From Candidatus Kerfeldbacteria bacterium (GTDB taxonomy: Bacteria > Patescibacteriota > Patescibacteriia > UBA9570 > XYC2-FULL-38-9), in NCBI GenBank assembly GCA_043813585.1, contig JBDRKW010000020.1, positions 1,185 to 65,184 of the forward strand: 64,000 bases of DNA, read 5' to 3'. Position 1 is the first letter of the stretch. The number at the start of each line of letters is the position of its first letter. The translations under genes were made by a program, and so were the position numbers. Below, piece by piece: positions 2,277-60,540 of this stretch. The notes below the pieces were generated by a model. That model was not told the DNA's origin and made no database searches. It was given only the letters and a program-made list of their open reading frames with translations.

Positions 2277-2362
2277 TCGTCAGGGCGACCGGCGCATCAG
2301 CGGCATATCTGATGCACCATCAGAACGATCCGCCGCCTACCAGCGGCGCTCAAGTACGATGG

Positions 2363-2404
2363 ACGGGCCGGATCTCTCACCAGATTCCGGCCCGTTCTTT
2401 TTTT
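2363..2404 (+). terminator. rho-independent terminator after the acidic lipoprotein gene
   Basis: A perfect 10-bp stem ACGGGCCGGA...TCCGGCCCGT is followed by TCTTTTTTT. Confidence 0.7.
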
Positions 2405-2456
2405 ACGAAAAACGCGAACACGTGTAGAATACATGCGCAGGCAGCTTTCCGCTGCA

Positions 2457-2485
2457 TTGACAAAACGCAAAAAAACATGTAGAAT
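2457..2485 (+). promoter_or_regulatory. sigma70-like promoter (TTGACA-N17-TAGAAT) for the radical SAM gene
   Basis: TTGACA is at about 2457-2462 and TAGAAT at about 2480-2485, roughly 28 nt upstream of the ATG at 2513. Confidence 0.5.
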
Positions 2486-2512
2486 CCACGGTTTGATACT
2501 AACCATTCCACC

Positions 2513-3541
2513 ATGCCTACAGAGAACAACCCCACAACCACAACCAACGCGCCGCTGCCGGTCGATGCCGTCATCGGCATTACCTATAACTGCAACTCCA
2601 AATGCGTGATGTGCGACATCTGGCAGATGAAGCCGCAGGAAGAGATGACCTTGGCAGATTTTGCCAAAATCCCGACCACGCTCAAAGACGTGAACATCTC
2701 GGGTGGCGAACCGTTTTTGCACAAAGATATTGTCGGCATCATTAAAACCGTGCATGAACGCGTACCCAACGCGCGCATTGTCATCTCCACCAACGGGTTT
2801 GCCACCAAGCTGATCGAAATGCGCATGAAGGAGATCGTGAAGTTCATGCCGAATATCCGCATCAGCATCAGCATCGATGGCATGGAGAAGATGCACGACG
2901 AGATCCGCCGCATCCCGAACGGATTCCAGAAAGCGATGGCCACGCTCGACATGCTCAAGAACATGGGCGTGACCGACATCCGGCTGGCATTTACCGTGAG
3001 CACCATCAACGTTGCAGACCTGCCGAAAGTATACGACCTGGCAAACAAGAAAGGCGTGCAGTTCACCATGGCGTTTGCGCAAAGTTCGGATTTTTACTTT
3101 GGCGGGAAGCAAAACTACGAAAACCCGGACCCGAAACTGCTCAAGCAGGGGTTTCAATACGTCGTTACCTCTGAACTCAAATCGCCCGAACCGAAGCGCT
3201 GGGCGCGTGCGTATTTTGAACATGGCCTCTACCAGTTTGCCACCACCGGTAAGCAGCCGCTGGCCGCAAAACCGGGCACGGACTTTTTCTACCTGGACCC
3301 GACCGGCATCATCTACCCGTCGGTCGTGCATTTCCACAGCATGGGGAATATCAAGGACTATGACACCTTTGAAGAACTCTGGAATGCCGGACAAGCCGAA
3401 GAAGCGCGCGCAGAGGTTGAAAAAGACAAGAAACAATACTGGATGATCTGCACTGCACGGTCGGCAATCCGCCGGCATCCGCTGCAGGTTGGAAAATGGA
3501 TACTCAGGAACAAGCTGATGCCGGGCAACGTCTTAAAATAA
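2513..3541 (+). CDS. radical SAM domain protein
   Basis: A CX3CX2C motif (YNCNSKCVMCDIW) lies near the N-terminus, followed by a glycine-rich SAM-binding segment (NISGGEPF). The gene sits at the head of the glycan cluster. Confidence 0.75.
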   Translation: MPTENNPTTTTNAPLPVDAVIGITYNCNSKCVMCDIWQMKPQEEMTLADFAKIPTTLKDVNISGGEPFLHKDIVGIIKTVHERVPNARIVISTNGFATKLIEMRMKEIVKFMPNIRISISIDGMEKMHDEIRRIPNGFQKAMATLDMLKNMGVTDIRLAFTVSTINVADLPKVYDLANKKGVQFTMAFAQSSDFYFGGKQNYENPDPKLLKQGFQYVVTSELKSPEPKRWARAYFEHGLYQFATTGKQPLAAKPGTDFFYLDPTGIIYPSVVHFHSMGNIKDYDTFEELWNAGQAEEARAEVEKDKKQYWMICTARSAIRRHPLQVGKWILRNKLMPGNVLK

Positions 3542-6045: not shown

Positions 6046-7241
6046 AAATACTCCAGGTCAACAAGTTTTTCTATGTGAAAGGCGGGTCAGAGCGCTATTT
6101 CTTTGACGTGAGCAGCGCGCTTGAAGAAGCCGGCCATGAGATCGTCCATTTTTCCATGCAGGATGACCGCAACGAGGAGTCGCCGTACGAAGAATACTTT
6201 ATCCGGAACATCGACTTCACCGGAAAGAAATCCATCAAGAGGGGGGTGCACTATATCTATTCGCTGGAAGCGTCGGAAATGATCAAGCGTCTGGTGAAAA
6301 AAACAAAACCGGACGTGGCGCACCTGCATAACATCGCGCATCAGCTGACGCCGTCGGTCATTGTGATGCTGCAGCAGCAGCAGATCCCCATCGTGCAGAC
6401 GCTCCACGACTACCAACTGATCTGCCCGAACTACCAGATGTTTACGCAAGGGTCGCCGTGCGAGCGGTGCAAGAAACACAAATACTGGAACGCGATCACG
6501 CATACATGCGTTCAGGACTCCAAAGCATCGTCCGCGCTTTCTGCGTTTGAGATGACCTTCCATAACCAGATACTCAAGTCCTACGAATGGGGCGTGAACC
6601 GGTATATCGCGCCGTCCAAGTTCCTCTACACGAAATTGCTGGAATGGGGGATCCGCAAGTCGCAGATCGCCTACCTGCCGCATTTTGTGGAGCGGGAACG
6701 CGATGCAAACATCAGGAAGAAGAACCAGGTCCTGTACGTCGGCCGCCTGTCAAAAGAAAAAGGCGTGCACGTTCTGGTTGATGCGGCAAAAGAACTTCCG
6801 GATGTTGAGGTATTGATAGCAGGCGAGGGTGAGGAGCGCGAAGCAATCGAAGCGAAGATCAAAAAAGACAAACTGAAGAACTGCAAGCTGCTCGGGTATA
6901 AAGTGAAGGATGAACTGGACTGGCTGGTGCAGGAATCGAAAGCAGTCATCGTGCCGTCGCTGTGGTGGGAAAACGCACCCCTGGCCGTGTATGAAGCGCT
7001 GGCGCTGGGAACGCCGGTGATAGGGTCGAATTTCGGCGGATTGGTTGAACTGATCCAGAACGGCAAGAATGGCTATACATTCGAACCGGGCAACCCCGCA
7101 GACCTTGCCAAAAAGGTAGAAATGTTGTTAAATAATGGGTCGATCAAAACCGGAAATAACCGGTTCGGCAGGGAGGAGCATCTACGGAAGTTGGTACGAA
7201 TCTATGAAACAGCCCAGGATCGCACAGCCCCGAAACTCTAA
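6042..7241 (+). CDS. glycosyltransferase, family 4 (GT-B fold)
   Basis: The protein has a GT4 motif (WENAPLAVYEALALGTPVIGSNFGGLVELI). It overlaps the upstream gene by ATGA. Confidence 0.85.
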   Translation: MKILQVNKFFYVKGGSERYFFDVSSALEEAGHEIVHFSMQDDRNEESPYEEYFIRNIDFTGKKSIKRGVHYIYSLEASEMIKRLVKKTKPDVAHLHNIAHQLTPSVIVMLQQQQIPIVQTLHDYQLICPNYQMFTQGSPCERCKKHKYWNAITHTCVQDSKASSALSAFEMTFHNQILKSYEWGVNRYIAPSKFLYTKLLEWGIRKSQIAYLPHFVERERDANIRKKNQVLYVGRLSKEKGVHVLVDAAKELPDVEVLIAGEGEEREAIEAKIKKDKLKNCKLLGYKVKDELDWLVQESKAVIVPSLWWENAPLAVYEALALGTPVIGSNFGGLVELIQNGKNGYTFEPGNPADLAKKVEMLLNNGSIKTGNNRFGREEHLRKLVRIYETAQDRTAPKL

Positions 7242-11142: not shown

Positions 11143-11172
11143 AATACCGCTAATATTAGCGGTATTTTTAAT
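11143..11172 (+). terminator. rho-independent terminator after the surface protein gene
   Basis: A perfect 24-nt palindrome AATACCGCTAAT|ATTAGCGGTATT is followed by TTTTAATATTTT. Confidence 0.7.
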
Positions 11173-18142: not shown

Positions 18143-19300
18143 ATGATTGCACCGCATGGAAACAAACTGGTAGAACGCGTTCTGCCGGAAGACAAGATTG
18201 AAGAAGTTAAAAAAGAGGCCGCGTCGCTCGTCAGCATTACGCTCAATGAGGAGCAGATTAAAGATGTGAAAAATATCGCGCGCGGCGTTTTGAGCCCCCT
18301 GACCGGGTTTATGAACCGGGCGGATTTTGAGGGCGTTGTTGACAACATGAAGCTGGCAAGCGGCATTACCTGGTCGATCCCGTTCGTGCTGCATATTTCC
18401 GAAGAGGAGGCAGCCAAGATGAAGAGCGGCGACCGAATTGCGCTGGTGGGCGGAGACGGTGAGCTGGTTGCGCTGATGACGATCGGCGACATTTACGATT
18501 TTGACGTCGAGCACGTGGCAGAGAAGGTATTCGGCACGGCTGACAACGAGCACCCCGGCGTGGCGCGGTGGCGCAAAATCAGCGGACGCAAACTGGTGGG
18601 CGGCGACATTGACCTGGTCGACAACTCGAAAGAGCCGTTCTATGACTATAACCTGGATCCGGCTGAAACGCGGTACCTGTTCAAGCAATACGGGTGGAAC
18701 ACGGTTGCCGGGTTTCAGACGCGCAACACGCCGCATCGCGCGCACGAGTATTTGCAGCGGTGTGCGCTCGAGCTGGTGGACGGCCTCTTCATCAACCCGA
18801 TCATCGGCGAAAAAAAAGCCGGCGATTTCCAGGATGACCTCATTATCAAGACATACGACTACCTTATCAAGAACTTCTTTCCGAAAGAACGCGCCACCTT
18901 TTCGATTTTGCCGGCACGCATGAACTACGCCGGCCCGCGCGAGGCAATCCTGCACGCTATCATCCGCAAGAACTTCGGCTGTACGCATTTTGTCGTCGGC
19001 CGCGACCATGCAGGCGTCGGCAATTACTACGGTTCCTACGACGCGCAGGAAATTTTCGACCAGATCGAGGATATCGGGATTGAAATTATGAAGTTCGAAC
19101 ATTCGTTTTTATGCAAGAAATGCGACACGATGGCGACCACGAAAACGTGCGGCCATACGGACGCCGACCGCGTCTGCCCGTCGGGGTCGCTGATACGCGA
19201 ACTGCTCTCTGCCGGAAAGCCGGTTCCGGAAGATATCATGCGCAAGGAGATTGTTGACCTGCTTCTCGCGGAAAAAAATCTATTCGTTACGGAAGACTAG
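18143..19300 (+). CDS. sat: sulfate adenylyltransferase (ATP sulfurylase)
   Basis: The protein has the GFQTRNTPHRAHEYL (QTRN and HRAH) motifs of ATP sulfurylase. It is 385 aa. Confidence 0.9.
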   Translation: MIAPHGNKLVERVLPEDKIEEVKKEAASLVSITLNEEQIKDVKNIARGVLSPLTGFMNRADFEGVVDNMKLASGITWSIPFVLHISEEEAAKMKSGDRIALVGGDGELVALMTIGDIYDFDVEHVAEKVFGTADNEHPGVARWRKISGRKLVGGDIDLVDNSKEPFYDYNLDPAETRYLFKQYGWNTVAGFQTRNTPHRAHEYLQRCALELVDGLFINPIIGEKKAGDFQDDLIIKTYDYLIKNFFPKERATFSILPARMNYAGPREAILHAIIRKNFGCTHFVVGRDHAGVGNYYGSYDAQEIFDQIEDIGIEIMKFEHSFLCKKCDTMATTKTCGHTDADRVCPSGSLIRELLSAGKPVPEDIMRKEIVDLLLAEKNLFVTED

Positions 19301-19301
19301 G

Positions 19302-20321
19302 ATGCTTGAGATGGTGGATTTCAAAACGCACATCAAAGATGTCGCGCCGGCATCCGTGCTTATCATCCACCACTGGGACGCTGACGGTTTGAGCTGCACC
19401 GCGTTGCTGCTGAACTGGCTGGCGGAGCATGCGCCTGAAACAACCGTGCAGACCATGTACCCGCAGATCAACAACTATTTCCTGACCGAGAGCGAGTATG
19501 AATCCATCCGCGACGGCGGGTATGACGGTATCGTCTGTGCTGACCTGAATTTTTCCGTTGACGTCATCGAAGCGCTGGAGCAGATCGCATCGCCGGTATT
19601 TGTTTTTGACCATCATTCCCAGACAGAAGGCATAAACCGTCCCGGCATCCAGGACACATCGTATCCCGGCTGTTCCGCCCTGGTGCACGAATATTTATTC
19701 GGCGGAGAACCGTCGCTCCTTGGGGTTCTCGGAATGGTTGGCGATATGGAAGAGCGGCTGAAAGAACGCGCAGGCCACTACGAGGCGGTCGAGGCGGTCA
19801 TGGAGAAAGAATCGCTTTCGTTTAAGGATATTCACCACATGACGAGGCTCATTGATACGTCGTATATTATTAAGGACGAGGACGCCATCGCGCATGCGAT
19901 TGAGGTATTGCGAAAAGATCCGAAGGACGCGCTTACCGATGAACAGATGATCGCAAACGAGCAGCGCATTGCGGATGAGTTGGAGCGCGAAAGCGGCAAA
20001 GAGCTGGAGCGGGTGACGGACAAAGTGCTGTTCCTGCCGATTGAATCGGAGATGAGTCTGATTTCGGCAATCACGCGCACGCAGTCGCGCAAGCATCCGG
20101 AAGCGGTGATTGTCACCGAACAGCGGCGCGGAGATGATGCGAGTTTTTATGTGCGAAGGAAAGACGCGGAGATCGACCTGGGCTGCGTGGCAGAGCTGGC
20201 GAAAGGAAAAGGATATGTTGCCGGAGGAAAGCCGGAAGTGACAGGAATTGTTCTGCCGGCCGCTGATCTGGACGGGTTCCGCAGCGAAGTGTTTGAATTG
20301 TTAAAACAGGAGCTTGAGTAG
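19302..20321 (+). CDS. DHH-family phosphoesterase, candidate 3'-phosphoadenosine-5'-phosphate (pAp) phosphatase/nanoRNase (NrnA-like)
   Basis: The start was re-assigned to the ATG directly after the sat stop. The protein has DHH motifs (HHWDADG; FDHHSQ) and a DHHA1-like C-terminus. Its position between sat and cysC suggests pAp recycling. Confidence 0.6.
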   Translation: MLEMVDFKTHIKDVAPASVLIIHHWDADGLSCTALLLNWLAEHAPETTVQTMYPQINNYFLTESEYESIRDGGYDGIVCADLNFSVDVIEALEQIASPVFVFDHHSQTEGINRPGIQDTSYPGCSALVHEYLFGGEPSLLGVLGMVGDMEERLKERAGHYEAVEAVMEKESLSFKDIHHMTRLIDTSYIIKDEDAIAHAIEVLRKDPKDALTDEQMIANEQRIADELERESGKELERVTDKVLFLPIESEMSLISAITRTQSRKHPEAVIVTEQRRGDDASFYVRRKDAEIDLGCVAELAKGKGYVAGGKPEVTGIVLPAADLDGFRSEVFELLKQELE

Positions 20322-21714
20322 TATGAATAACAGGAAGGTCATCGTCATCGGACTGGATTGCGGAACGCCACAGCTTATTTTTGATCAGTATAAAAAAGAC
20401 CTGCCGAATATTTCGGCGATGATGGAGCAGGGAACGTGGGGCAGGCTCAAAAGCACCATACCGCCGATTACCATTCCGGCGTGGGCATGCATGACCACAT
20501 CAAAAACACCGGGCGACCTGGGAGTGTACGGGTTCCGTTCGCGGACGCCAGGCGCGCCGTATGACGCCATGGATATTGCGCACGCGGGCCTTATTAAAGA
20601 AAAACGCATCTGGGATTACCTGGGTGACGCCGGCAAGAAGGTCGGCATGCTCGGGGTGCCGCAGACCTATCCTGTGAAGCCGGTGAACGGCATGATGGTA
20701 TCGAGCTTCATGACACCGAGCACAAAGGAAGAGTTCGCCTACCCGGCAGAATTAAAACAGGAGATCCTCGACATGGTCGCGCCGGATGATTACATTTTTG
20801 ACTTTGCAAACCGGTCCGCAGAACCGCCGGAACAAGTGCTGGAAAAAATCTACACCATGACCGACCAGCGGCAGAAGATCTTCAAGCACTGGATACGGAA
20901 CAAGGAGTGGGACTTCCTCATGATGGTGGAGATGGGCGTGGACCGCATCCACCACTACCTGTGGCAGTACATGGATCCCACGCACAAGGATTATGAAGCC
21001 GGCAACCCTTTCGAAAACAAGATCCGCGAATACTACATGCACATCGACGCGTTCATCGGAGAGGTGCGCGAAATGGCGCCGGCCGACACCGTGATCTACG
21101 TCGTTTCCGACCACGGAGCAAAACGGATGGATGGCATGTTTGTCATCAACGAATGGCTGATTGAAAACGGCTACCTGGTGCTGAAAGAATTCCCGAAGGA
21201 ACCGACAAGCATCAACGCATGTGACGTGGACTGGAGCAAAACGAAGGCATGGGCCTGGGGCGGATTTTACGGGCGCCTGTTTTTGAACATTAAAGGACGC
21301 GAACAGCAGGGCATTGTTGATCCGGCAGACGCGGATGCGCTACTAGACGAACTGCGCTCAAAACTGATGGAAGTGAAGGGTCCAAACGGAGAAGAAATGA
21401 AGCATCTTCTCGTCAAACCGGGCGAATTGTATGCGGATGGGCGTGGCGATTCGCCAGACCTCATGATTTTCTGGGGCGACCTCTACTACAAACTGGCGGG
21501 CACGCTCGGGTACAACTCCTTGTATATCGAAAAGGACGACCGGGGCCTTGATTTCGGCGTCCACGACTGGTATGGTGTGTACTTGCGGCATGATCCGAAG
21601 GCCAAGGGATTGGGCGAAAAAGACGGCCTCAGCATCCTGGACATCACTCCAACCTGGCTGAACGACTTTGGCATGGATGTGCCCGGCGATATGAGAGGAA
21701 CAATTATTGAATAA
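20314..21714 (+). CDS. alkaline-phosphatase-superfamily protein, type I phosphodiesterase/nucleotide pyrophosphatase family
   Basis: The N-terminus [29 protein letters not shown] carries the metal-binding D and the T/S nucleophile typical of PF01663-type enzymes. Confidence 0.65.
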
Positions 21715-22336
21715 TATGAAACAGAAAGCGACAAACATTACATGGCATGAGGGCGACGTCACAAAGGAAGACCGGGAGAAGCTGCTCGGCCAAAAGGGCG
21801 TGGTGATATGGTTCACCGGCCTTTCAGGATCGGGCAAGTCAACGCTGGCAGTTGAGGTAGAGAAAAAATTGTTTACACAGGGCCGTGCGTGTTATCGTCT
21901 TGATGGCGACAACGTCCGCCACGGGATCAACAAAGACCTTGGTTTTTCAGATGAAGACCGCACGGAAAACATCCGCCGCATCGGCGAGGTGGCAAAACTG
22001 TTCGCCGACGCCGGCATCATTGTGATGACATCATTCATCTCTCCGTTCCGGGCTGACCGCGACATTGTTCGCGCGCTTTTGCCGGAAGGGGAATTTATTG
22101 AAGCGTACGTGCAATGTTCGCTTGAAGAATGCGAACGGCGCGACCCCAAAGGGCTCTATAAGAAAGCGCGTGCGGGCGAGATTCCCGATTTTACCGGCAT
22201 TGATTCGGCATATGAGGAACCGATGGACCCGGAGATTGTTGTGGCGACGGATAAAATGGGCATTGAAGAAGCGACCGATTTCCTATTAAAGGAGCTCGGA
22301 CGCCTAGGAGTACTCAATGGCGAAGTTCAACAATAG
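21707..22336 (+). CDS. cysC: adenylylsulfate (APS) kinase
   Basis: The protein has the P-loop [16 protein letters not shown], is 209 aa, and has a conserved APS-kinase core (DGDNVRHG..). Confidence 0.9.
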
Positions 22337-24058: not shown

Positions 24059-24739
24059 ATGCATGAAATAAAGAAAATTGCAGACGTCAAACCGTTCCAG
24101 AAACCGCAGGACTCTGTTTTTTCAATGCTATTCACAAGAAGACTTTCCCGCATCCTGACGTTCATCCTGGTCAAGGCGGATAAGGGCGTAACGCCCAACA
24201 AGGTTTCGACTTTTTCATTCCTGCTCGCGGTCATCGCGTGCGTGCTATTTGTATATGAAGATTATTGGGCGCGGTTTGCCGGCGTTATCCTACTGCAGCT
24301 CAGCTTCGCGTTTGATTGTTCGGACGGCGAGATCGCGCGCATCAAGAACATGAGTTCCAAATTCGGGGCGTGGCTGGATTCTGTCTACGACCGCATCAAA
24401 GAGGTGCTCATGTTTGCGTCCATGACGCTGTACTGGTTCCTGTACGAGGAGCGCGCGGTGTGGGTGCTCCTGGTCGGCTTTTTTGCAATCATCGGTTTGC
24501 TGCTTGTTTCTTACCTGCGCGAAGCGAAGAGAAGCTCCTGGCCGTCGAACCGCGTATCCGAACTGTTTATTGCAAAAGATATCTACGTCGGCACCGTGGA
24601 TGTCACGATCTACCTGGTCAGCTTTGCCGTGCTGTTTAACTTTCAAGTCTACATCCTGACGGTATTTTTACTTGTCAGCATACCGTTGCTGGCCAAGCAG
24701 TTCCTTTCTGCCTACCGGCTTTCGAAAAAAGAAATATAA
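24059..24739 (+). CDS. CDP-alcohol phosphatidyltransferase family protein
   Basis: The protein has the signature DCSDGEIAR..G.WLDSVYDRIKE (D-G-x2-A-R...D-x3-D) and multiple TM helices. Confidence 0.8.
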   Translation: MHEIKKIADVKPFQKPQDSVFSMLFTRRLSRILTFILVKADKGVTPNKVSTFSFLLAVIACVLFVYEDYWARFAGVILLQLSFAFDCSDGEIARIKNMSSKFGAWLDSVYDRIKEVLMFASMTLYWFLYEERAVWVLLVGFFAIIGLLLVSYLREAKRSSWPSNRVSELFIAKDIYVGTVDVTIYLVSFAVLFNFQVYILTVFLLVSIPLLAKQFLSAYRLSKKEI

Positions 24740-24740
24740 A

Positions 24741-24770
24741 ATGCCGCATGAAGCGGCATTTTTCTTATTT
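24741..24770. terminator. bidirectional rho-independent terminator between convergent genes
   Basis: A hairpin ATGCCGC-atgaa-GCGGCAT is flanked by an A-run on one side and TTTTTCTTATTT on the other. Confidence 0.7.
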
Positions 24771-24778
24771 GAGGCGCT

Positions 24779-26404
24779 CTAGAGTTTAATGCTGCCGAGC
24801 GCGCTTTTGATTGAGTCGCGCTCCGACTCCTTTTCTTCTTGTTTGCGCGAAACCGGGCCGATCTCTACCGGCTTCTTTTTGGCATCAGAATCTTCCGTAA
24901 ACAACGCCTTGGAAACGCGGCCGTCGCAGTCAGAAGGAACCGGCAGGCCGAACAGGTGAAGGATAATCGGCGTAATGTCCTGCATCTTCAAATTTTTGAC
25001 CTCGGCGTTGGTTTCAAAGTCCGGGCCGTAGGCCATGAACACGCCGTATTTGCCGTGCTTGTTGCTGACCTCTTCGCCAAACAGGGAGCCGGAATGGAAA
25101 TGGCCGGTGAGCCAGTACTGGTCCAGTTCAAAGAAGATATCCGGCGCCTGGTCAGGCGCATCGCCGCCGTACACCTCGTCGCGCGTCATGACCTTTTTCA
25201 CGACAGGAACGCCCTGCGGGTCCTTGAGGTTGCGGAGCTTATCGATAATTTCGGTTCGCAGCGGCAGGTATTCAGCGCTGGAGACCGTACCGTCCGTGTA
25301 GACCCAGTCCTTGTTGATATAGGCATTGGTGATATAGGCGCCTTTCGGAAAGCAAACGTTCGTTTCGTTGAAATCGATGCCCACGTTCACTTTGATATGG
25401 ACGGGGAAGTATTTCTTCACGATATGGTGGTAGCTCCATTTTGCCGCGCGCTCGGCAACGGGAATCTTCGACAGCGCGTTAATGGCTCCGGTCCCGATAT
25501 TCAGCTTCTTCTTTTTTGCGCGCAGCGTGTCTGTTTCTTTTGCGCGCCTCGTCACCGCGCCGCGGAAGTCGTCGCCCTGCTTGTTTGTCTTCAAATAGCC
25601 CTGCTGTTCAAGCCATCGGTTCAAGTAGAAGATCTTATCAAACGCCGCAAATCCGTGGTCGGAGAGTACAATCAGGTTCGCATCTTCGGGAAGGTTATCT
25701 ACAAACCATTTCAGGTGTTCGTCTATCTTTTCAAAGACGCGGCGGGGGGATTCAGCTTGCTGCTCTTCCAGCTCCTTGAACGCCATGTGTGAAATCCAGT
25801 CGGAATGCGAGAAGAGGTAGAAGAAAAAATCCCACGGCTTCTTTTTGAAGATCGCTTTCACTGCCTCGACCTGCTCTTCCATATGGTTCAATAGGTCTTC
25901 CGTATATTCATCCTGCCGCGACGTGATGCGTAGGCTCTCATCCGGCGTGAGCCGCCATTTCTTCAGCTCCGGGAACTCTTCAACGAGCGATGCGGGATAG
26001 ATGAACTGGTCGCCCTGCGTGAGCAAGCTGGTGATGGTCGGCGTATCCTTCAGTTTCGGCGGCCAGGTAGCAGGCAGGTTCAGCAGAATGGACTTGAGCC
26101 CGCGTTCATGCAACAGCTCATAGATCGTCTTATCCTTGATGTCTTTACTCGTCACGAACTTCATGTTGCCGAGCGAATCAGTCGGAAGCATAAAATCAAA
26201 TACGCCGTGCTTGCCCGGATGCTTGCCGGTGGCAAAGGTCGTCCACGCGGTCGCGGTCATGTTCGGGATGGTCGATTCCAAATCGCCGGACACGCCCTGC
26301 TCCATGAGCTTTTTCACGGTCGGCATGTATCCCTTGTCTGCAAGCGGCTTCAACAATTTCCATGTGGCGCCGTCAAGGCCAATGGCAACAATTTTCCTGT
26401 TCAT
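24779..26404 (-). CDS. alkaline-phosphatase-superfamily protein, type I phosphodiesterase/nucleotide pyrophosphatase family (paralog of 20314-21714)
   Basis: The N-terminus KIVAIGLDGATWKLL..TIPNMTATAWTTFATGK matches that family. The protein is 541 aa. Confidence 0.65.
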   Translation of the reverse strand: MNRKIVAIGLDGATWKLLKPLADKGYMPTVKKLMEQGVSGDLESTIPNMTATAWTTFATGKHPGKHGVFDFMLPTDSLGNMKFVTSKDIKDKTIYELLHERGLKSILLNLPATWPPKLKDTPTITSLLTQGDQFIYPASLVEEFPELKKWRLTPDESLRITSRQDEYTEDLLNHMEEQVEAVKAIFKKKPWDFFFYLFSHSDWISHMAFKELEEQQAESPRRVFEKIDEHLKWFVDNLPEDANLIVLSDHGFAAFDKIFYLNRWLEQQGYLKTNKQGDDFRGAVTRRAKETDTLRAKKKKLNIGTGAINALSKIPVAERAAKWSYHHIVKKYFPVHIKVNVGIDFNETNVCFPKGAYITNAYINKDWVYTDGTVSSAEYLPLRTEIIDKLRNLKDPQGVPVVKKVMTRDEVYGGDAPDQAPDIFFELDQYWLTGHFHSGSLFGEEVSNKHGKYGVFMAYGPDFETNAEVKNLKMQDITPIILHLFGLPVPSDCDGRVSKALFTEDSDAKKKPVEIGPVSRKQEEKESERDSIKSALGSIKL

Positions 26405-26435
26405 ACTATCAGTTAATGTCCGCTTAACCTCTCCC

Positions 26436-26519
26436 GTGCATTTCCATCGCGTGCTATTCTCGTCTTCGCTCGACGCACGCTACATGGAAATGCACTCGCG
26501 AGGATTCGCGGACAGTATT
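26436..26519. repeat. structured inverted-repeat element, copy 1 (12-bp outer stem, 6-bp inner stem, 20-nt loop, conserved 3' tail)
   Basis: The outer stem is GTGCATTTCCAT...ATGGAAATGCAC. The conserved core is cgcgtgctattctcgtcttcgctcgacgcacgctac, and the tail is tcgcgaggattcgcgga. The same core, with a different but perfectly complementary stem, occurs at about 53803-53885. Confidence 0.7.
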
Positions 26520-26524
26520 TTTTA

Positions 26525-26737
26525 TTAATCAAGGTAACCGAGGTCTTCCAGCCGCTTCTTGACGGCTTCCTCCTGTTCCTTGGTGTAGGTCGGTTCTGCG
26601 GCCGGTTCATTGCCGGTCTGCTTAATGACCTCCTCCAGTACATAGTTCACGTACGCTTCGACAGAATCGAATTCGTCGGATGCGTTGACGCGCTCTTCGA
26701 GTTTCTTTGTAAGGTCGTCGTTCAGGTTAATCTGCAT
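26525..26737 (-). CDS. small ribbon-helix-helix (CopG/Arc-like) DNA-binding protein candidate
   Basis: The protein is 70 aa. Its N-terminus MQINLNDDLTKKLEER fits a beta-strand-helix RHH pattern, and it has an acidic C-terminus. No cognate toxin gene was seen. Confidence 0.4.
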   Translation of the reverse strand: MQINLNDDLTKKLEERVNASDEFDSVEAYVNYVLEEVIKQTGNEPAAEPTYTKEQEEAVKKRLEDLGYLD

Positions 26738-37144: not shown

Positions 37145-38278
37145 ATGAAGATATTAATAGTCAATTACGAATTCCCGCCGCTTGGCGGCGGCGGCGGAGT
37201 GGCGGCCAAGGATTTGGCGCGCGGTTTTATGAAAAACGGCCATAGCGTGGATTACCTGACCACGCGGTTTAAGGATGCACGCCGGACAGAAACCGTTGAC
37301 GGCATCCGCGTGCATCGCGTTCGTGTGCTTGGACGCCGGCACCAGTCCCACGCCTCGTTGCCTTCGCTCCTTTCCTTTCCGTTTTGCGCTCTATGGAAAG
37401 GCATCCGGCTGTGCCGCACGCACCGGTACGATCTGATAAATACCCATTTTGTCATCCCGTCCGGTCCGCTCGGCTGGTTGTTATCCGTACTGTTCCGAAT
37501 CCCGAATATCCTGACCGTTCACGGGGGAGATATTTATGATCCCACAAAATCGCTGTCGCCGCACCGCCATTGGGGGTTGCGCGCGGTCGTCCGGTTCCTC
37601 CTGAACCGCGCTGATGTCGTCACTGCGCAGTCCTCGAATACGAAGGAAAATACGCTGGAGTATTACAGGCCGCGGAAGCAGATACAGGTGATTCCGCTGG
37701 CGTACGAAACAATACCGTATGCACCGGTGCCGCGCACAGAGCTGGAGCTTGACCCTAAAGCGTTCGTCCTTGCCGGCATGGGCCGCATGGTCAAGAGAAA
37801 ACGCTTTGCGGATATCGTGAGGGCGCTGCAATTGCTGCCGGAACAGGTGCGCGCCGTAATTATCGGCAAGGGCCCGGAATCGGAAGCGATCAAATCGCTG
37901 GCCCGGGAGATGGACGTGGCCGACCGGCTGCTGCTGCCCGGGTTTGTCAGCCAGGAGCGGAAGATGCAGCTGCTTAATGCATCGGACGCCTTTGTCCTCA
38001 GTTCCGAACACGAAGGGTTTGGCATCGTATTGCAGGAAGCGATGCAGGCCGGGTTGCCGATTATCGCAACGAACAACGGCGGCCAGACCGATCTGATTAC
38101 ACAGTCAAAGAACGGCTACCTCTACAAACCTGGCGACGTACAGGCGCTCGTCGAATCGATCCGTGCGCTGATGGCGAACGCGGATCTTCGGCGGGAGATG
38201 GCAGAGGAAAACAAACAACGTGTCAGGGAGTTTTCACCCGAAAGCATTGCGCAGCGGTATCTGGAACTGCTCGGTTAG
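37145..38278 (+). CDS. glycosyltransferase, family 4 (GT-B fold)
   Basis: The start was re-assigned to MKILIV, downstream of the predicted promoter. The N-terminus is NYEFPPLGGGGGVAAKDLA, and the C-terminus reads SSEHEGFGIVLQEAMQAGLPIIATNNGG. Confidence 0.8.
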   Translation: MKILIVNYEFPPLGGGGGVAAKDLARGFMKNGHSVDYLTTRFKDARRTETVDGIRVHRVRVLGRRHQSHASLPSLLSFPFCALWKGIRLCRTHRYDLINTHFVIPSGPLGWLLSVLFRIPNILTVHGGDIYDPTKSLSPHRHWGLRAVVRFLLNRADVVTAQSSNTKENTLEYYRPRKQIQVIPLAYETIPYAPVPRTELELDPKAFVLAGMGRMVKRKRFADIVRALQLLPEQVRAVIIGKGPESEAIKSLAREMDVADRLLLPGFVSQERKMQLLNASDAFVLSSEHEGFGIVLQEAMQAGLPIIATNNGGQTDLITQSKNGYLYKPGDVQALVESIRALMANADLRREMAEENKQRVREFSPESIAQRYLELLG

Positions 38279-39141
38279 AACGACCAGCTGTCGATTGTCC
38301 GGCCAAGCAGGTGTTCCAGCTGCCGTTTGTCGGCCGTAAAGCGGGAGACAAGCTCATTCCTGGTCGAAGATGCGACCTCATAGTGGGATGTGTCAGGAGC
38401 CAGGTACAGCCGTTCCAACAGCTGCTTTGCCGTCGTGTGCGACAGCTTGCGGACCAGCCATAAGCCGGCGGCAGAACGTTTGATCATATTTTTTGCGTTG
38501 CGGGCGGTTTCGCGCTTCACGGCCTGTTTGGCATTCACTTTCCTGTGCAGCGCTTCAGGAGGGAAAGACGAATCAACACCCAGGAACGAATAGACGCCCC
38601 CGATAACGCGTTCCGGGTCCTCTTTCAGATCTTCAAACAGCACCACCTTGATTTGTTCAGCCGGGAACAGGTCATAATATCGTTTCAGCTGCTCATAATA
38701 AAAACCTCGCTCGATGAATTCCGGGAATTTCTTCGAAGCCTCTTCAAATGTGTCTGGGACCGGGATGAGCTTGCGCGTATGGGCGTATTGCGACAAGGCG
38801 CGGTAGACCGGGTCGCGCAGGATCGCGATGATTTTCACCGACGGGCTGTATTCATGGATCAATTTGGCCGATTCGGGATCATAGATATAATGCGTGCTGA
38901 ATTCGCCCAGTAACTGGCCCGGCTTTGCGCCTGCAAACTGTTGTTTGTATTCATCAAAACCGCTATACTGCCGTTGACGCGTTGCCGGACAGTGCTTGAT
39001 GCGGTTCCAATAATCCAGCTCCTTCTTCTTCGGAACATAAATCTGCGGGTGTTCCATCAGGCATTCCGCAAGCCAGGTCGTGCCGGCTTTTTGCGCGCCG
39101 ATGCCGATGAAGTCAATTGTGAACGGGCGTTGTGCGCTCAT
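38275..39141 (-). CDS. PAPS-dependent sulfotransferase (Sulfotransfer_1/3-like)
   Basis: The protein has the 5'-PSB motif FIGIGAQKAGTTWL (PKxGTTW-type) and the 3'-PB motif ILRDPVYRALSQY (RDPxxRxxS). Confidence 0.8.
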   Translation of the reverse strand: MSAQRPFTIDFIGIGAQKAGTTWLAECLMEHPQIYVPKKKELDYWNRIKHCPATRQRQYSGFDEYKQQFAGAKPGQLLGEFSTHYIYDPESAKLIHEYSPSVKIIAILRDPVYRALSQYAHTRKLIPVPDTFEEASKKFPEFIERGFYYEQLKRYYDLFPAEQIKVVLFEDLKEDPERVIGGVYSFLGVDSSFPPEALHRKVNAKQAVKRETARNAKNMIKRSAAGLWLVRKLSHTTAKQLLERLYLAPDTSHYEVASSTRNELVSRFTADKRQLEHLLGRTIDSWSF

Positions 39142-52695: not shown

Positions 52696-52775
52696 TGCAT
52701 CAGGAGCATTGACGAATCACGTGAAATCAATACAATAAGGGCTGGCAATCAGCCCTTATTTTGTAACAATTACAG

Positions 52776-53783
52776 ATGAATATTCTTCTTACAGGCGGAG
52801 CCGGTTTCATGGGTTCCAATATGGTGCATTATTTACTGAGGCAATACCCGGAGTACAAGGTATTGAATTTTGATAAATTGACTTACGCTGGCAATCCGGC
52901 AAATGTGAAGAATATCGAAAAAAACCCCAACTACACCTTTATGCAGGGCGACATCGCAGACGAAGAAGGGGTGAACAAGGCCTTTGAAGAATTCAAGCCT
53001 GATGTGGTCATTAATTATGCGGCAGAAACGCATGTGGATCGTTCCATTCTGGACCCGAAAGCATTCCTGATGACCGATATTATCGGCACGTACACGCTGC
53101 TGGAAGCGATGCGCAAATACGGAACAAAGAAGATGGTGCAGATCTCTACCGACGAGGTGTTCGGGTCAATCGAGGAAGGAGCGTTTACGGAAACAAGTCC
53201 GTTTGAACCGAATAGTCCATACTCAGCGTCCAAAGCAGGAGGAGACCATCTTTGTCGTGCCTATTGGGTGACGTTTGAAACGCCGGTGGTCGTGACGCAC
53301 AGCTGCAACTTTTACGGTCCAAATCAATACCCTGAAAAGCTGATCCCGCTGTTCATCACGAATCTTATAGAGGGCAAGAAAGTTCCGGTATACGCAAAAG
53401 GGGAGAATGTCCGCGAGTGGATCTTTACCGAAGACCATTGCCGCGCGGTCGACCGTATTTTGCACGATGGTAAGCCGGGCGATGTCTACAACATCGGTAC
53501 CGGCAAAGAGCTGACCAATATGGAGATTACAAACATGATTCTGAAGGCGCTTGGTGTTGGTGAAGAGATGATCGAGTACGTTAAAGACCGTCCCGGCCAC
53601 GATTTCCGCTACGCCATCGACTGCAGCAAGCTTACGAATGATCTGGGCTGGAAACCGTCTGTCGAATTTGAAGAAGGCCTGCAGCAGACGATCGACTGGT
53701 ACAAGAACAACGAAGACTGGTGGAAGCCGCTCAAATCCGGCGAGTACATGGAGTACTACAAGAAGCAATACCAAGACCGTTAA
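52776..53783 (+). CDS. rmlB: dTDP-glucose 4,6-dehydratase
   Basis: The protein has GGAGFMGSNMVHYLL and YSASKAGGDHL (the YxxxK of RmlB). It is 335 aa. Confidence 0.85.
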   Translation: MNILLTGGAGFMGSNMVHYLLRQYPEYKVLNFDKLTYAGNPANVKNIEKNPNYTFMQGDIADEEGVNKAFEEFKPDVVINYAAETHVDRSILDPKAFLMTDIIGTYTLLEAMRKYGTKKMVQISTDEVFGSIEEGAFTETSPFEPNSPYSASKAGGDHLCRAYWVTFETPVVVTHSCNFYGPNQYPEKLIPLFITNLIEGKKVPVYAKGENVREWIFTEDHCRAVDRILHDGKPGDVYNIGTGKELTNMEITNMILKALGVGEEMIEYVKDRPGHDFRYAIDCSKLTNDLGWKPSVEFEEGLQQTIDWYKNNEDWWKPLKSGEYMEYYKKQYQDR

Positions 53784-53802
53784 TATTCGTTCGCTTCATC
53801 CC

Positions 53803-53885
53803 TTCAGAATGTTTGCACCGCGTGCTATTCTCGACTCCGCTCGACGCACGCTACGTGCAAACATTCTCGCAGGGATTCGCGAATG
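53803..53885. repeat. structured inverted-repeat element, copy 2
   Basis: The outer stem is GAATGTTTGCAC...GTGCAAACATTC, a different sequence from copy 1 but also perfectly complementary. The core matches copy 1 at 34 of 36 positions. A second long hairpin (CGTATTGCTCG...GAGCAATACG) follows at about 53890-53960. Confidence 0.7.
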
Positions 53886-53978
53886 CCCGTAAGCGTATTG
53901 CTCGTACGAGCGATTGGCCCGCCAGGGTTGTCAGCGAGTGAGCAATACGCGTAGGGCATACGCAACTAACACGATAAT

Positions 53979-54836
53979 ATGATTAAGACTCCAATAGTCA
54001 TAACAGGCGCGAAAGGGATGCTGGGGCAGGATCTGGCACGGGTTTTTGCTGAATTCAGTCCTATTCCGTTGGATCGTGAAGAGTTGGATATTACGGATGC
54101 GGAGGCAGTGAAGAAAAAGTTCGAAGAGTTGAAGCCGGGAACGGTGATCAACGCGGCAGCATATAATGCAGTTGATGAAGCGGAAAATGATGGGGGAAAG
54201 CGGCTGGCAGACCTGGTCAATGCGAACGGACCGAAGAATCTTGCGGAGGCGTGTAAAACAATAGGCGCAACATTCGTGCATTACAGTACGGATTATGTTT
54301 TTGATGGTGAGAACCAGGCAGGATATACGGAAGACGATGAACCAAAGCCTCAAAGTGCCTATGCTTTATCCAAGCGACTTGGAGAAGTGCACGCATTAGA
54401 GACAGAAGGAAATGTGTATATCGTCCGAACTTGTAAGTTATTCGGAAAACCTGGAGTGAGTGAAGCGGCTAAGGAGAGTTTTATTGAGCTGATGCTCCGT
54501 CTGGCACAAGAGAAAGATGAACTGCAAGTGGTTGACGAGGAACTCGCGTCACCGACTTACACGCCAGACCTGGCGCAGCAGACAAAAGTATTACTGGAAG
54601 GGGATTATGAACCAGGGATTTACCATATTACGAACTCCGGTGCCTGCACTTGGTATAGGTTTGCCCAGGAAATATTCGAACAGTCGGGTATCGAGATTAA
54701 ACTTAAGAAAGTTAAAGCAGAGGATTTCCCGAGGCCGGCGGCACGTCCAAAATATTCCATTTTGCTGAATACAAAACTGCCTCGCATGCGTTCATGGGAG
54801 CAGGCATTGGCTGATTATCTTAAGCAGCGCAATTAA
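53979..54836 (+). CDS. rmlD: dTDP-4-dehydrorhamnose reductase
   Basis: The N-terminus is ITGAKGMLGQDL. The protein is 285 aa with a YxxxK motif (YALSKRLGE). Confidence 0.8.
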   Translation: MIKTPIVITGAKGMLGQDLARVFAEFSPIPLDREELDITDAEAVKKKFEELKPGTVINAAAYNAVDEAENDGGKRLADLVNANGPKNLAEACKTIGATFVHYSTDYVFDGENQAGYTEDDEPKPQSAYALSKRLGEVHALETEGNVYIVRTCKLFGKPGVSEAAKESFIELMLRLAQEKDELQVVDEELASPTYTPDLAQQTKVLLEGDYEPGIYHITNSGACTWYRFAQEIFEQSGIEIKLKKVKAEDFPRPAARPKYSILLNTKLPRMRSWEQALADYLKQRN

Positions 54837-60505: not shown

Positions 60506-60510
60506 ACTAA

Positions 60511-60540
60511 AAACCGCGCATCAAGCGCGGTTTTTGAACT
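60511..60540. terminator. bidirectional rho-independent terminator between pyrG and rpmA
   Basis: The sequence is AAAAACCGCGC-atcaa-GCGCGGTTTTT. Confidence 0.75.

Follow-up and report, generated by a model that had tools for sequence, protein, structure and literature searches.

Genes in the 64-kb window (the whole stretch of Kerfeldbacteria DNA analysed here) mostly overlap or lie a few bases apart in a greedy ORF map, and the other intergenic gaps of the rml cluster measure -4, 15, 22, 18, and 80 nt in the same map. The rmlB-type gene and rmlD are separated by 195 nt, from the rmlB stop codon to the ATG of the rmlD ORF at 53979, which confirms the preliminary description of a long gap in an otherwise tightly packed region. 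Both flanking genes are intact. The rmlB-type product matches Pfam GDP_Man_Dehyd (5e-82) and Epimerase, and its C-terminus (...YYKKQYQDR*) matches that of a relative, L003 (...YYKKQYSDR*), while RmlD is 100% identical to NCBI MFH1426585.1, a protein of a Candidatus Kerfeldbacteria MAG (CPR/Patescibacteria). The spacer holds no ORF of its own, only ORFs running in from rmlB in other frames. Its main features, and those of a related element elsewhere in the window, are as follows.

26416-26514, plus strand: copy 1 of the A-type palindromic element, 120.7 bits with covariance model R1, DNA fold z about -5.9
52776-53783, plus strand: rmlB-type dTDP-glucose 4,6-dehydratase gene, 335 aa, intact, stop codon TAA at 53781-53783
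53778-53786, no strand assigned: left direct-repeat copy CGTTAATAT, including the rmlB stop codon, a candidate target-site duplication
53784-53978, plus strand: rmlB-rmlD spacer, 195 nt, RNA fold z = -7.8
53789-53884, plus strand: hairpin A, the second A-type copy, scoring 115 bits with model R1
53819-53854, plus strand: apical module of hairpin A, CGCGTGCTATTCTCGACTCCGCTCGACGCACGCTAC, with inner helices GCGTGC/GCACGC and TCG/CGA
53876-53883, no strand assigned: palindrome TTCGCGAA, common to the 3' base of A and the 5' base of B
53879-53963, plus strand: hairpin B, DNA fold z = -4.9 and -4.5 on the two strands
53972-53980, no strand assigned: right direct-repeat copy CGATAATAT, overlapping the AT of the rmlD ATG
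53979-54836, plus strand: rmlD, dTDP-4-dehydrorhamnose reductase gene, 285 aa, intact, Pfam RmlD_sub_bind 6e-83

Folding of the whole 195 nt, which the preliminary description had proposed, gave a minimum free energy of -88.8 kcal/mol as RNA, compared with -58.2 +/- 3.9 kcal/mol for 200 dinucleotide shuffles, none of which (0/200) was as stable as the real sequence (z = -7.8). The minus strand also folded stably as RNA (z = -5.3), and, when folded singly as DNA, hairpins A and B were each significant whichever strand was used (z between -4.5 and -6.1). Hairpin A consists of a perfect 13-bp stem (53806-53818/53855-53867) around 36 nt, extended outward by ATCCCT/AGGGAT and TTCGC/GCGAA, and folds alone as DNA with z = -6.1 on both strands. 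Hairpin B, the second extended hairpin that had been reported after copy 2 and is confirmed here, has 17-nt arms (53887-53903/53940-53956) that are 88% complementary and include a perfect 11-bp stem (53893-53903/53940-53950) around an apical part of 36 nt (53904-53939), with an extension at the base by GCGAATGCCC/GGGCATACGC. The two hairpins overlap by 8 bp within the palindrome TTCGCGAA.

In architecture, hairpin B resembles A, with 36 nt at the apex of a perfect stem of 11-13 bp and a base of the GGnATTCGCGAA type, and it appears inverted relative to A, as judged by flank similarity. Sequence alignment of the two hairpins reached a z of only 2-3, and model R1 did not find hairpin B at E <= 10, so that B is not counted as a proven member of the A family; it is possibly an inverted, distant relative of A.

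Like an intrinsic terminator, the hairpins lie after a stop codon, but they differ from one in their composite stems of about 30 bp, their 36-nt apical parts, and the lack of a T-run, the sequence continuing as GCGAATG... past A and AACTAACACG past B. The preliminary description was therefore right that the spacer is not a simple terminator and that no T-run follows its hairpins, and no terminator-like site was called in the spacer. Three terminator-like hairpins found elsewhere in the window (24738-24762, 60509-60535, and 11143-11166) have stems of 10-11 bp, loops of 4-5 nt, and A/T runs; they lie shortly beyond the ends of genes, two in gaps between converging genes, and look like the ordinary, partly bidirectional terminators of this organism. 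An attenuator or terminator was rejected for the spacer because T-run, promoter, and leader ORF are all lacking. Searches for other known features within it were likewise negative, with no plus-strand promoter-like site, no tRNA or tmRNA, and, against Rfam at E <= 10, only chance miRNA and snoRNA matches (18-21 bits, against cut-offs of 42-100). Across the whole window, Rfam 15 gave 0 matches at the gathering score.

A second copy and its pattern of conservation

The spacer had been described as holding copy 2 of a structured element. This is correct, and the other copy lies at 26416-26514. Three inverted repeats with 36 nt between their arms occur in the window, namely A, B, and the repeat at 26414-26517, which corresponds to copy 1 and whose 34-nt arms (26414-26447/26484-26517) are 79% complementary, with 13/17 matching positions in the terminal inverted repeats by manual count. 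The two A-type copies, 27 kb apart, align over 96 columns with zero gaps and form the only non-coding interspersed repeat within the window. With covariance model R1, which was built from these two copies, no third A-type copy was found in the window even with filters off. Repeats of other kinds are present near the start of the window: ORF 1437-2276 carries internal direct repeats (1569-1827 and 1656-1911, 77% identical) and has a 170-nt repeat in common with ORF 423-1115, which is oriented divergently. Neither ORF has a Pfam match, and the divergent intergenic region contains a 28-nt inverted repeat (1346-1403).

Conservation between the two A-type copies is markedly uneven. The 36-nt apical module of copy 2 is identical to its counterpart in copy 1 (26448-26483) at 34/36 positions, whereas the remainder of the element reaches 38/60 (Fisher p = 5e-4). 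Directly below the apical module, the 12-bp stem retains 6/12 identical positions in each arm, and the basal flanks retain 12/18 and 14/18. All of the stem differences (6/6) are compensated, as is one more in the outermost helix, so that 100% of cells are paired in both copies over all 29 pairs of the model, and 7 pairs are changed on both sides; when the structure was slid by 1-3 columns as a control, only 0-1 pairs were doubly changed. One-sided changes are limited to two pairs, both giving G-U on the plus strand, which is weak at n = 2. These compensated changes indicate that the hairpin itself is maintained, with the apical module under the tightest constraint. The A-type stems are Watson-Crick and the DNA folds equally well on both strands, and the stems therefore carry no strand information.

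We also considered whether the variable stem could be a guide or a copy of a target. The stem of copy 1 has one exact 12-nt match, CGTGCATTTCCA, at 3325-3336 inside the minus-strand ORF 2297-3478, which we judged a chance match, and nothing matches the stem of A or that of B at <=1 mismatch; this idea was rejected.

Copy 1 fills a 120-nt gap between a minus-strand 70-aa gene (26525-26737) and a phosphodiesterase-family gene (24779-26404). It has plus orientation, while the operon around it, unrelated to rml, is transcribed from the minus strand. Copy 1 is thus antisense to the local transcript, and its apical sequence as mRNA would be the reverse complement of the version in the rml transcript. 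The two A-type copies are hence oppositely oriented relative to local transcription. This setting bears on the idea that the spacer embeds one or two independent small RNA genes, with the A-type element expressed from the plus strand and the apical 36 nt as its functional part. Such genes would account for the same plus orientation of both copies, for the far better conservation of the apical module, and, weakly, for the two plus-strand G-U pairs. Neither copy, however, has a plus-strand promoter-like site before it or a terminator after it, copy 1 sits between two minus-strand genes, and the element has neither an Rfam family nor a homologue in the collections searched; we regard this possibility as very improbable.

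Orthologous junctions in relatives

We compared the syntenic rml loci L001-L007, from five distinct relatives (L003/L004/L005 and L006/L007 being grouped). In four of the relatives the two genes overlap or are 1 nt apart, and the closest relative differs. The rmlB-rmlD junctions are arranged as follows.

L001 (closest relative): two extra genes between rmlB and rmlD, at L001 8035-10004
L002: rmlB and rmlD overlap by 4 nt
L003/L004/L005: rmlB and rmlD 1 nt apart
L006/L007: rmlB and rmlD overlap by 14 nt

Neither the spacer nor a hairpin of its kind is present in any of the relatives' rml loci L001-L007, and R1 matches nothing in 128 kb of relatives' DNA. Conservation in related genomes had been one half of the test that the preliminary description set for its own proposal, and on this half the proposal failed, the spacer being absent from every relative examined. 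This absence points to a lineage-specific insertion. After the identical RmlD entry, the next best protein matches are 70-71% identical, so presence and absence are seen here between species only. In L001, the two extra genes encode a 308-aa protein without a Pfam match and a 348-aa GT2 glycosyltransferase, which implies that the same junction has been struck independently by different insertions. A remnant of these two genes was rejected as the origin of the spacer, as there is no similarity between them. At the junction that holds copy 1 in the window, L008-L011 have gaps of 30, 51, or 868 nt from which the element is absent; L008 has an extra phosphodiesterase paralogue there, and the 868-nt gap of L010/L011 holds another ORF. 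The flanks of copy 1 could not be aligned with the relatives' junctions.

The comparison with relatives weighs on a second RNA-based explanation, in which the spacer is a cis-acting element of the rml mRNA and controls the rmlB:rmlD expression ratio through processing, attenuation, or differential stability. A very stable structure (z = -7.8) inside a co-directional gene pair would suit this role, as would the missing T-run, which implies read-through, and the compensated stem changes that maintain the hairpin; moreover, ERIC and REP are known to alter mRNA decay (PMC3184786), and the spacer hairpins could resemble ERIC in such an effect. Yet the element is missing at rmlB-rmlD in five distinct relatives, where the two genes are coupled or separated by other genes, and copy 1 would present the reverse complement of the apical sequence to its own operon. 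The pure Watson-Crick stems show no strand-telling G-U pattern, Rfam offers no match, and it is the rmlC-rmlB gap that represents the conserved structured spacer in this cluster. We consider a dedicated cis-acting element unlikely, although mRNA processing at the spacer hairpins is possible as a side effect of an insertion. The earlier suggestion, whether of an embedded small RNA or of a site devoted to RNA processing or attenuation, is accordingly unsupported, given the absence in relatives, the antisense position of copy 1, and the lack of an Rfam match or promoter.

The rmlC-rmlB gap (52696-52775) is, at 80 nt, smaller than the rmlB-rmlD spacer. It contains a promoter-like TTGACG-16-TACAAT (52709-52736) leading into a hairpin of 11 perfect base pairs (52734-52760) and, after it, TTTTG, and L001 has the same layout at 6919-7009 (GTTGACG...TACAGTAGGGGCTGGCTAACAGCCCCTATTTG) with one compensated pair.

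A further long hairpin (fold z = -4.1) was observed in another Kerfeldbacteria genome, at L010 18372-18440 (GCA_016182555, JACPGJ010000002.1). It has an 11-bp perfect stem, a 49-nt apical part, and a GATCC/GGATC base, with a sequence unrelated to A or B, and it fills a 165-nt gap between DHH-family and ATP-sulfurylase genes that overlap in the window (19251-19300). This hairpin suggests that operon junctions in other Kerfeldbacteria harbour separate hairpin insertions of their own.

The variable gene content of both junctions raises the question of whether the palindromes are instead recombination sites, or scars, of the gain or loss of gene cassettes in surface-glycan loci, marking or promoting the breakpoints. 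Both junctions do vary in gene content among relatives (L001; L008; L010/L011), but the extra genes of L001 and L008 are not flanked by such hairpins, the spacer shares no sequence with the relatives' extra genes, no recombinase gene is found nearby, and glycan loci are variable anyway. Integron attC sites carry R'' (RYYYAAC) and R' (GTTRRRY) core sites at the ends of an imperfect palindrome with a variable centre. The A-type element has no such cores, since its ends carry GTTAAT, in which the third R is a T so that GTTRRRY does not fit, and no RYYYAAC. Its conservation is also inverted relative to attC, with a conserved centre and a variable stem. A cassette site or scar hence seems very improbable.

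A probable palindromic repeat insertion and its known counterparts

The spacer is probably a lineage-specific insertion of non-coding palindromic repeat DNA of a MITE/ERIC-like or REP/BIME-like kind. The insert would comprise one A-type element of about 96 bp and a second palindrome, B, overlapping the end of A by 8 bp, and it would have entered a junction at which the rmlB stop and the rmlD start once abutted. The edges of the spacer are consistent with this origin. The direct-repeat copies CGTTAATAT and CGATAATAT are identical at 8/9 positions, with a spacing of 194 that brackets a 185-bp insert (p about 0.03 when both 27-nt flanks were shuffled). Both copies resemble the uninterrupted L003 junction AGATAATATG: L003 reads GAC AGA TAA T ATG, and the spacer edges in the window read GAC CGT TAA TAT on the left and CAC GAT AAT ATG on the right. 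A direct join without the insert would give the empty-site junction CGTTAATATG. The flanking repeat is suggestive of, though no proof of, a target-site duplication. Copy 1 is flanked on both sides only by TTAAT, which is not significant.

MITEs are about 50-400 bp long, without coding capacity, with terminal inverted repeats (TIRs), a target-site duplication of fixed length, multiple dispersed copies in one genome, and a cognate autonomous IS or transposase with matching ends. Among the known families of small palindromic repeats, ERIC/IRU (about 127 bp) is found in Enterobacteriaceae, Correia/CREE in Neisseria, and bcr1 (about 155 bp) in the Bacillus cereus group. The A-type unit (about 96 bp) and the insert (185 bp) are of MITE size and non-coding, both copies have TIR-like ends and are palindromic over their whole length, a direct repeat flanks the rml insert, and presence or absence differs at orthologous junctions between species. 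As with MITEs, the copies occupy short gaps between genes of one transcription unit and are found in either orientation. A review of such elements lists sizes under 200 bp, TIRs, direct repeats, and long stem-loops, together with co-transcription at gene ends, compensatory changes in bcr1, and an effect of ERIC on mRNA decay (PMC3184786). The compensatory changes that keep the A-type stem parallel those of bcr1. In other respects the A-type element stands apart from ERIC, Correia, and bcr1: it has no sequence similarity to any of them, is seen as two copies in 64 kb, and resides in a CPR (Patescibacteria) bacterium. It also departs from the usual MITE pattern, as its apical 36 nt are more conserved than its stem, whereas MITEs usually combine conserved TIRs with a variable core.

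REP sequences are GC-rich imperfect palindromes of 20-40 nt with a conserved GTAG at the foot, present in tens to hundreds of copies. The spacer hairpins share with REP and BIME elements their position between the genes of an operon, and with BIMEs the juxtaposition of two units of different type (A and B) in inverted arrangement. On the minus strand, the apical module of A reads GTA|GCGTGC...GCACGC, i.e., GTAG plus an imperfect palindrome of about 35 nt, which we take to recall the REP signature recognised by RAYT transposases. At about 96 nt, the A-type unit is nonetheless about three times longer than a REP and has two copies in the window, the G of its GTAG is part of the stem, and, unlike in a REPIN, its REP-like part forms the tip of a longer palindrome rather than pairing with a second REP.

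Several observations count against the insertion reading. Only two A-type copies and one B hairpin are seen in the 64-kb window, which leaves the family at n = 2, the rml repeat is weak (p about 0.03) and copy 1 has no significant duplication, and the element sequence was found nowhere else searched: the apical module of A had 0 exact-pattern matches in GTDB representative genomes, JGI metagenomes, and IMG/VR, the apical part of B had 0 in genome, metagenome, and viral collections, and blastn of the spacer against phages and plasmids gave no match. Among the approximately 58 window ORFs, Pfam revealed no transposase, recombinase, Cas, or reverse transcriptase domain and no RAYT (Y1 HUH) gene. 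Literature searches returned no paper on such palindromic repeats in Kerfeldbacteria or in CPR/Patescibacteria.

The Pfam content of the window consists of glycan and teichoic-type biosynthesis, sulfate activation, ribosomal proteins, and a T2SS-type ATPase. Genes for ATP-sulfurylase, APS kinase, a DHH-family protein, and sulfotransferase (18143-22336 and 38275-39141) are embedded among glycosyltransferases, flippases, and CDP-alcohol phosphatidyltransferases, which, from gene annotation, points to a putative surface glycan of this CPR bacterium that is sulfated or phosphodiester-linked.

Proposed mechanism and significance

Under the insertion reading, the DNA would have arrived through a transposition- or recombination-type event catalysed in trans, and the hairpin would since have been maintained by selection or by self-correction of the palindrome, the conserved apical module perhaps being the part recognised by a protein. 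In the rml transcript, the element would simply be read through, and its two hairpins would be expected to uncouple translation of rmlB and rmlD on the read-through mRNA. As a by-product of insertion, the hairpins may also act as an RNase III/E site or as an exonuclease barrier. Such an insertion is tolerable and need not harm expression, given that rmlB and rmlD are both intact and that a Shine-Dalgarno sequence is missing from most genes in the window. The start of rmlD is preceded by an A-rich leader, AACTAACACGATAAT, like the leaders of other genes that lack a Shine-Dalgarno sequence.

Most of the about 55 genes in the window have no Shine-Dalgarno-like sequence, and many of them start behind an A-rich motif, for example AACACGCAT or AACACGATAAT. 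These starts suggest Shine-Dalgarno-independent initiation in this CPR genome.

An apical identity of 34/36 beside a half-diverged stem, a further point against the insertion reading, is unlike the outcome of simple neutral decay of a selfish repeat and hints at a function. Along these lines, and with little probability attached, the A-type unit could be a structured module of the CPR lineage, in which an invariant, REP-like apical hairpin of 36 nt serves as a protein recognition site displayed on a fast-evolving but always perfectly paired stem of 12-13 bp. The putative partner would be an HUH/RAYT-type or other recombinase recognising the hairpin as single-stranded DNA, cruciform, or RNA. 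Such a module might be connected with how genes are gained and lost in surface-glycan loci, both copies being located at variable junctions.

Taken together, the spacer element is most likely a lineage-specific addition, in a CPR host, to the palindromic interspersed repeats already known as a class. The genomes of CPR/Patescibacteria are small and leave little room between genes, and, if the family is confirmed, it would represent repeat DNA invading the coupled gene junctions of a streamlined genome while leaving the genes unbroken. Its pattern of a conserved apex on a covarying stem would point to a hairpin recognised by a protein. For genome annotation, the element is a reason for caution, as even a conspicuous structure between two genes of an operon is not necessarily regulatory.
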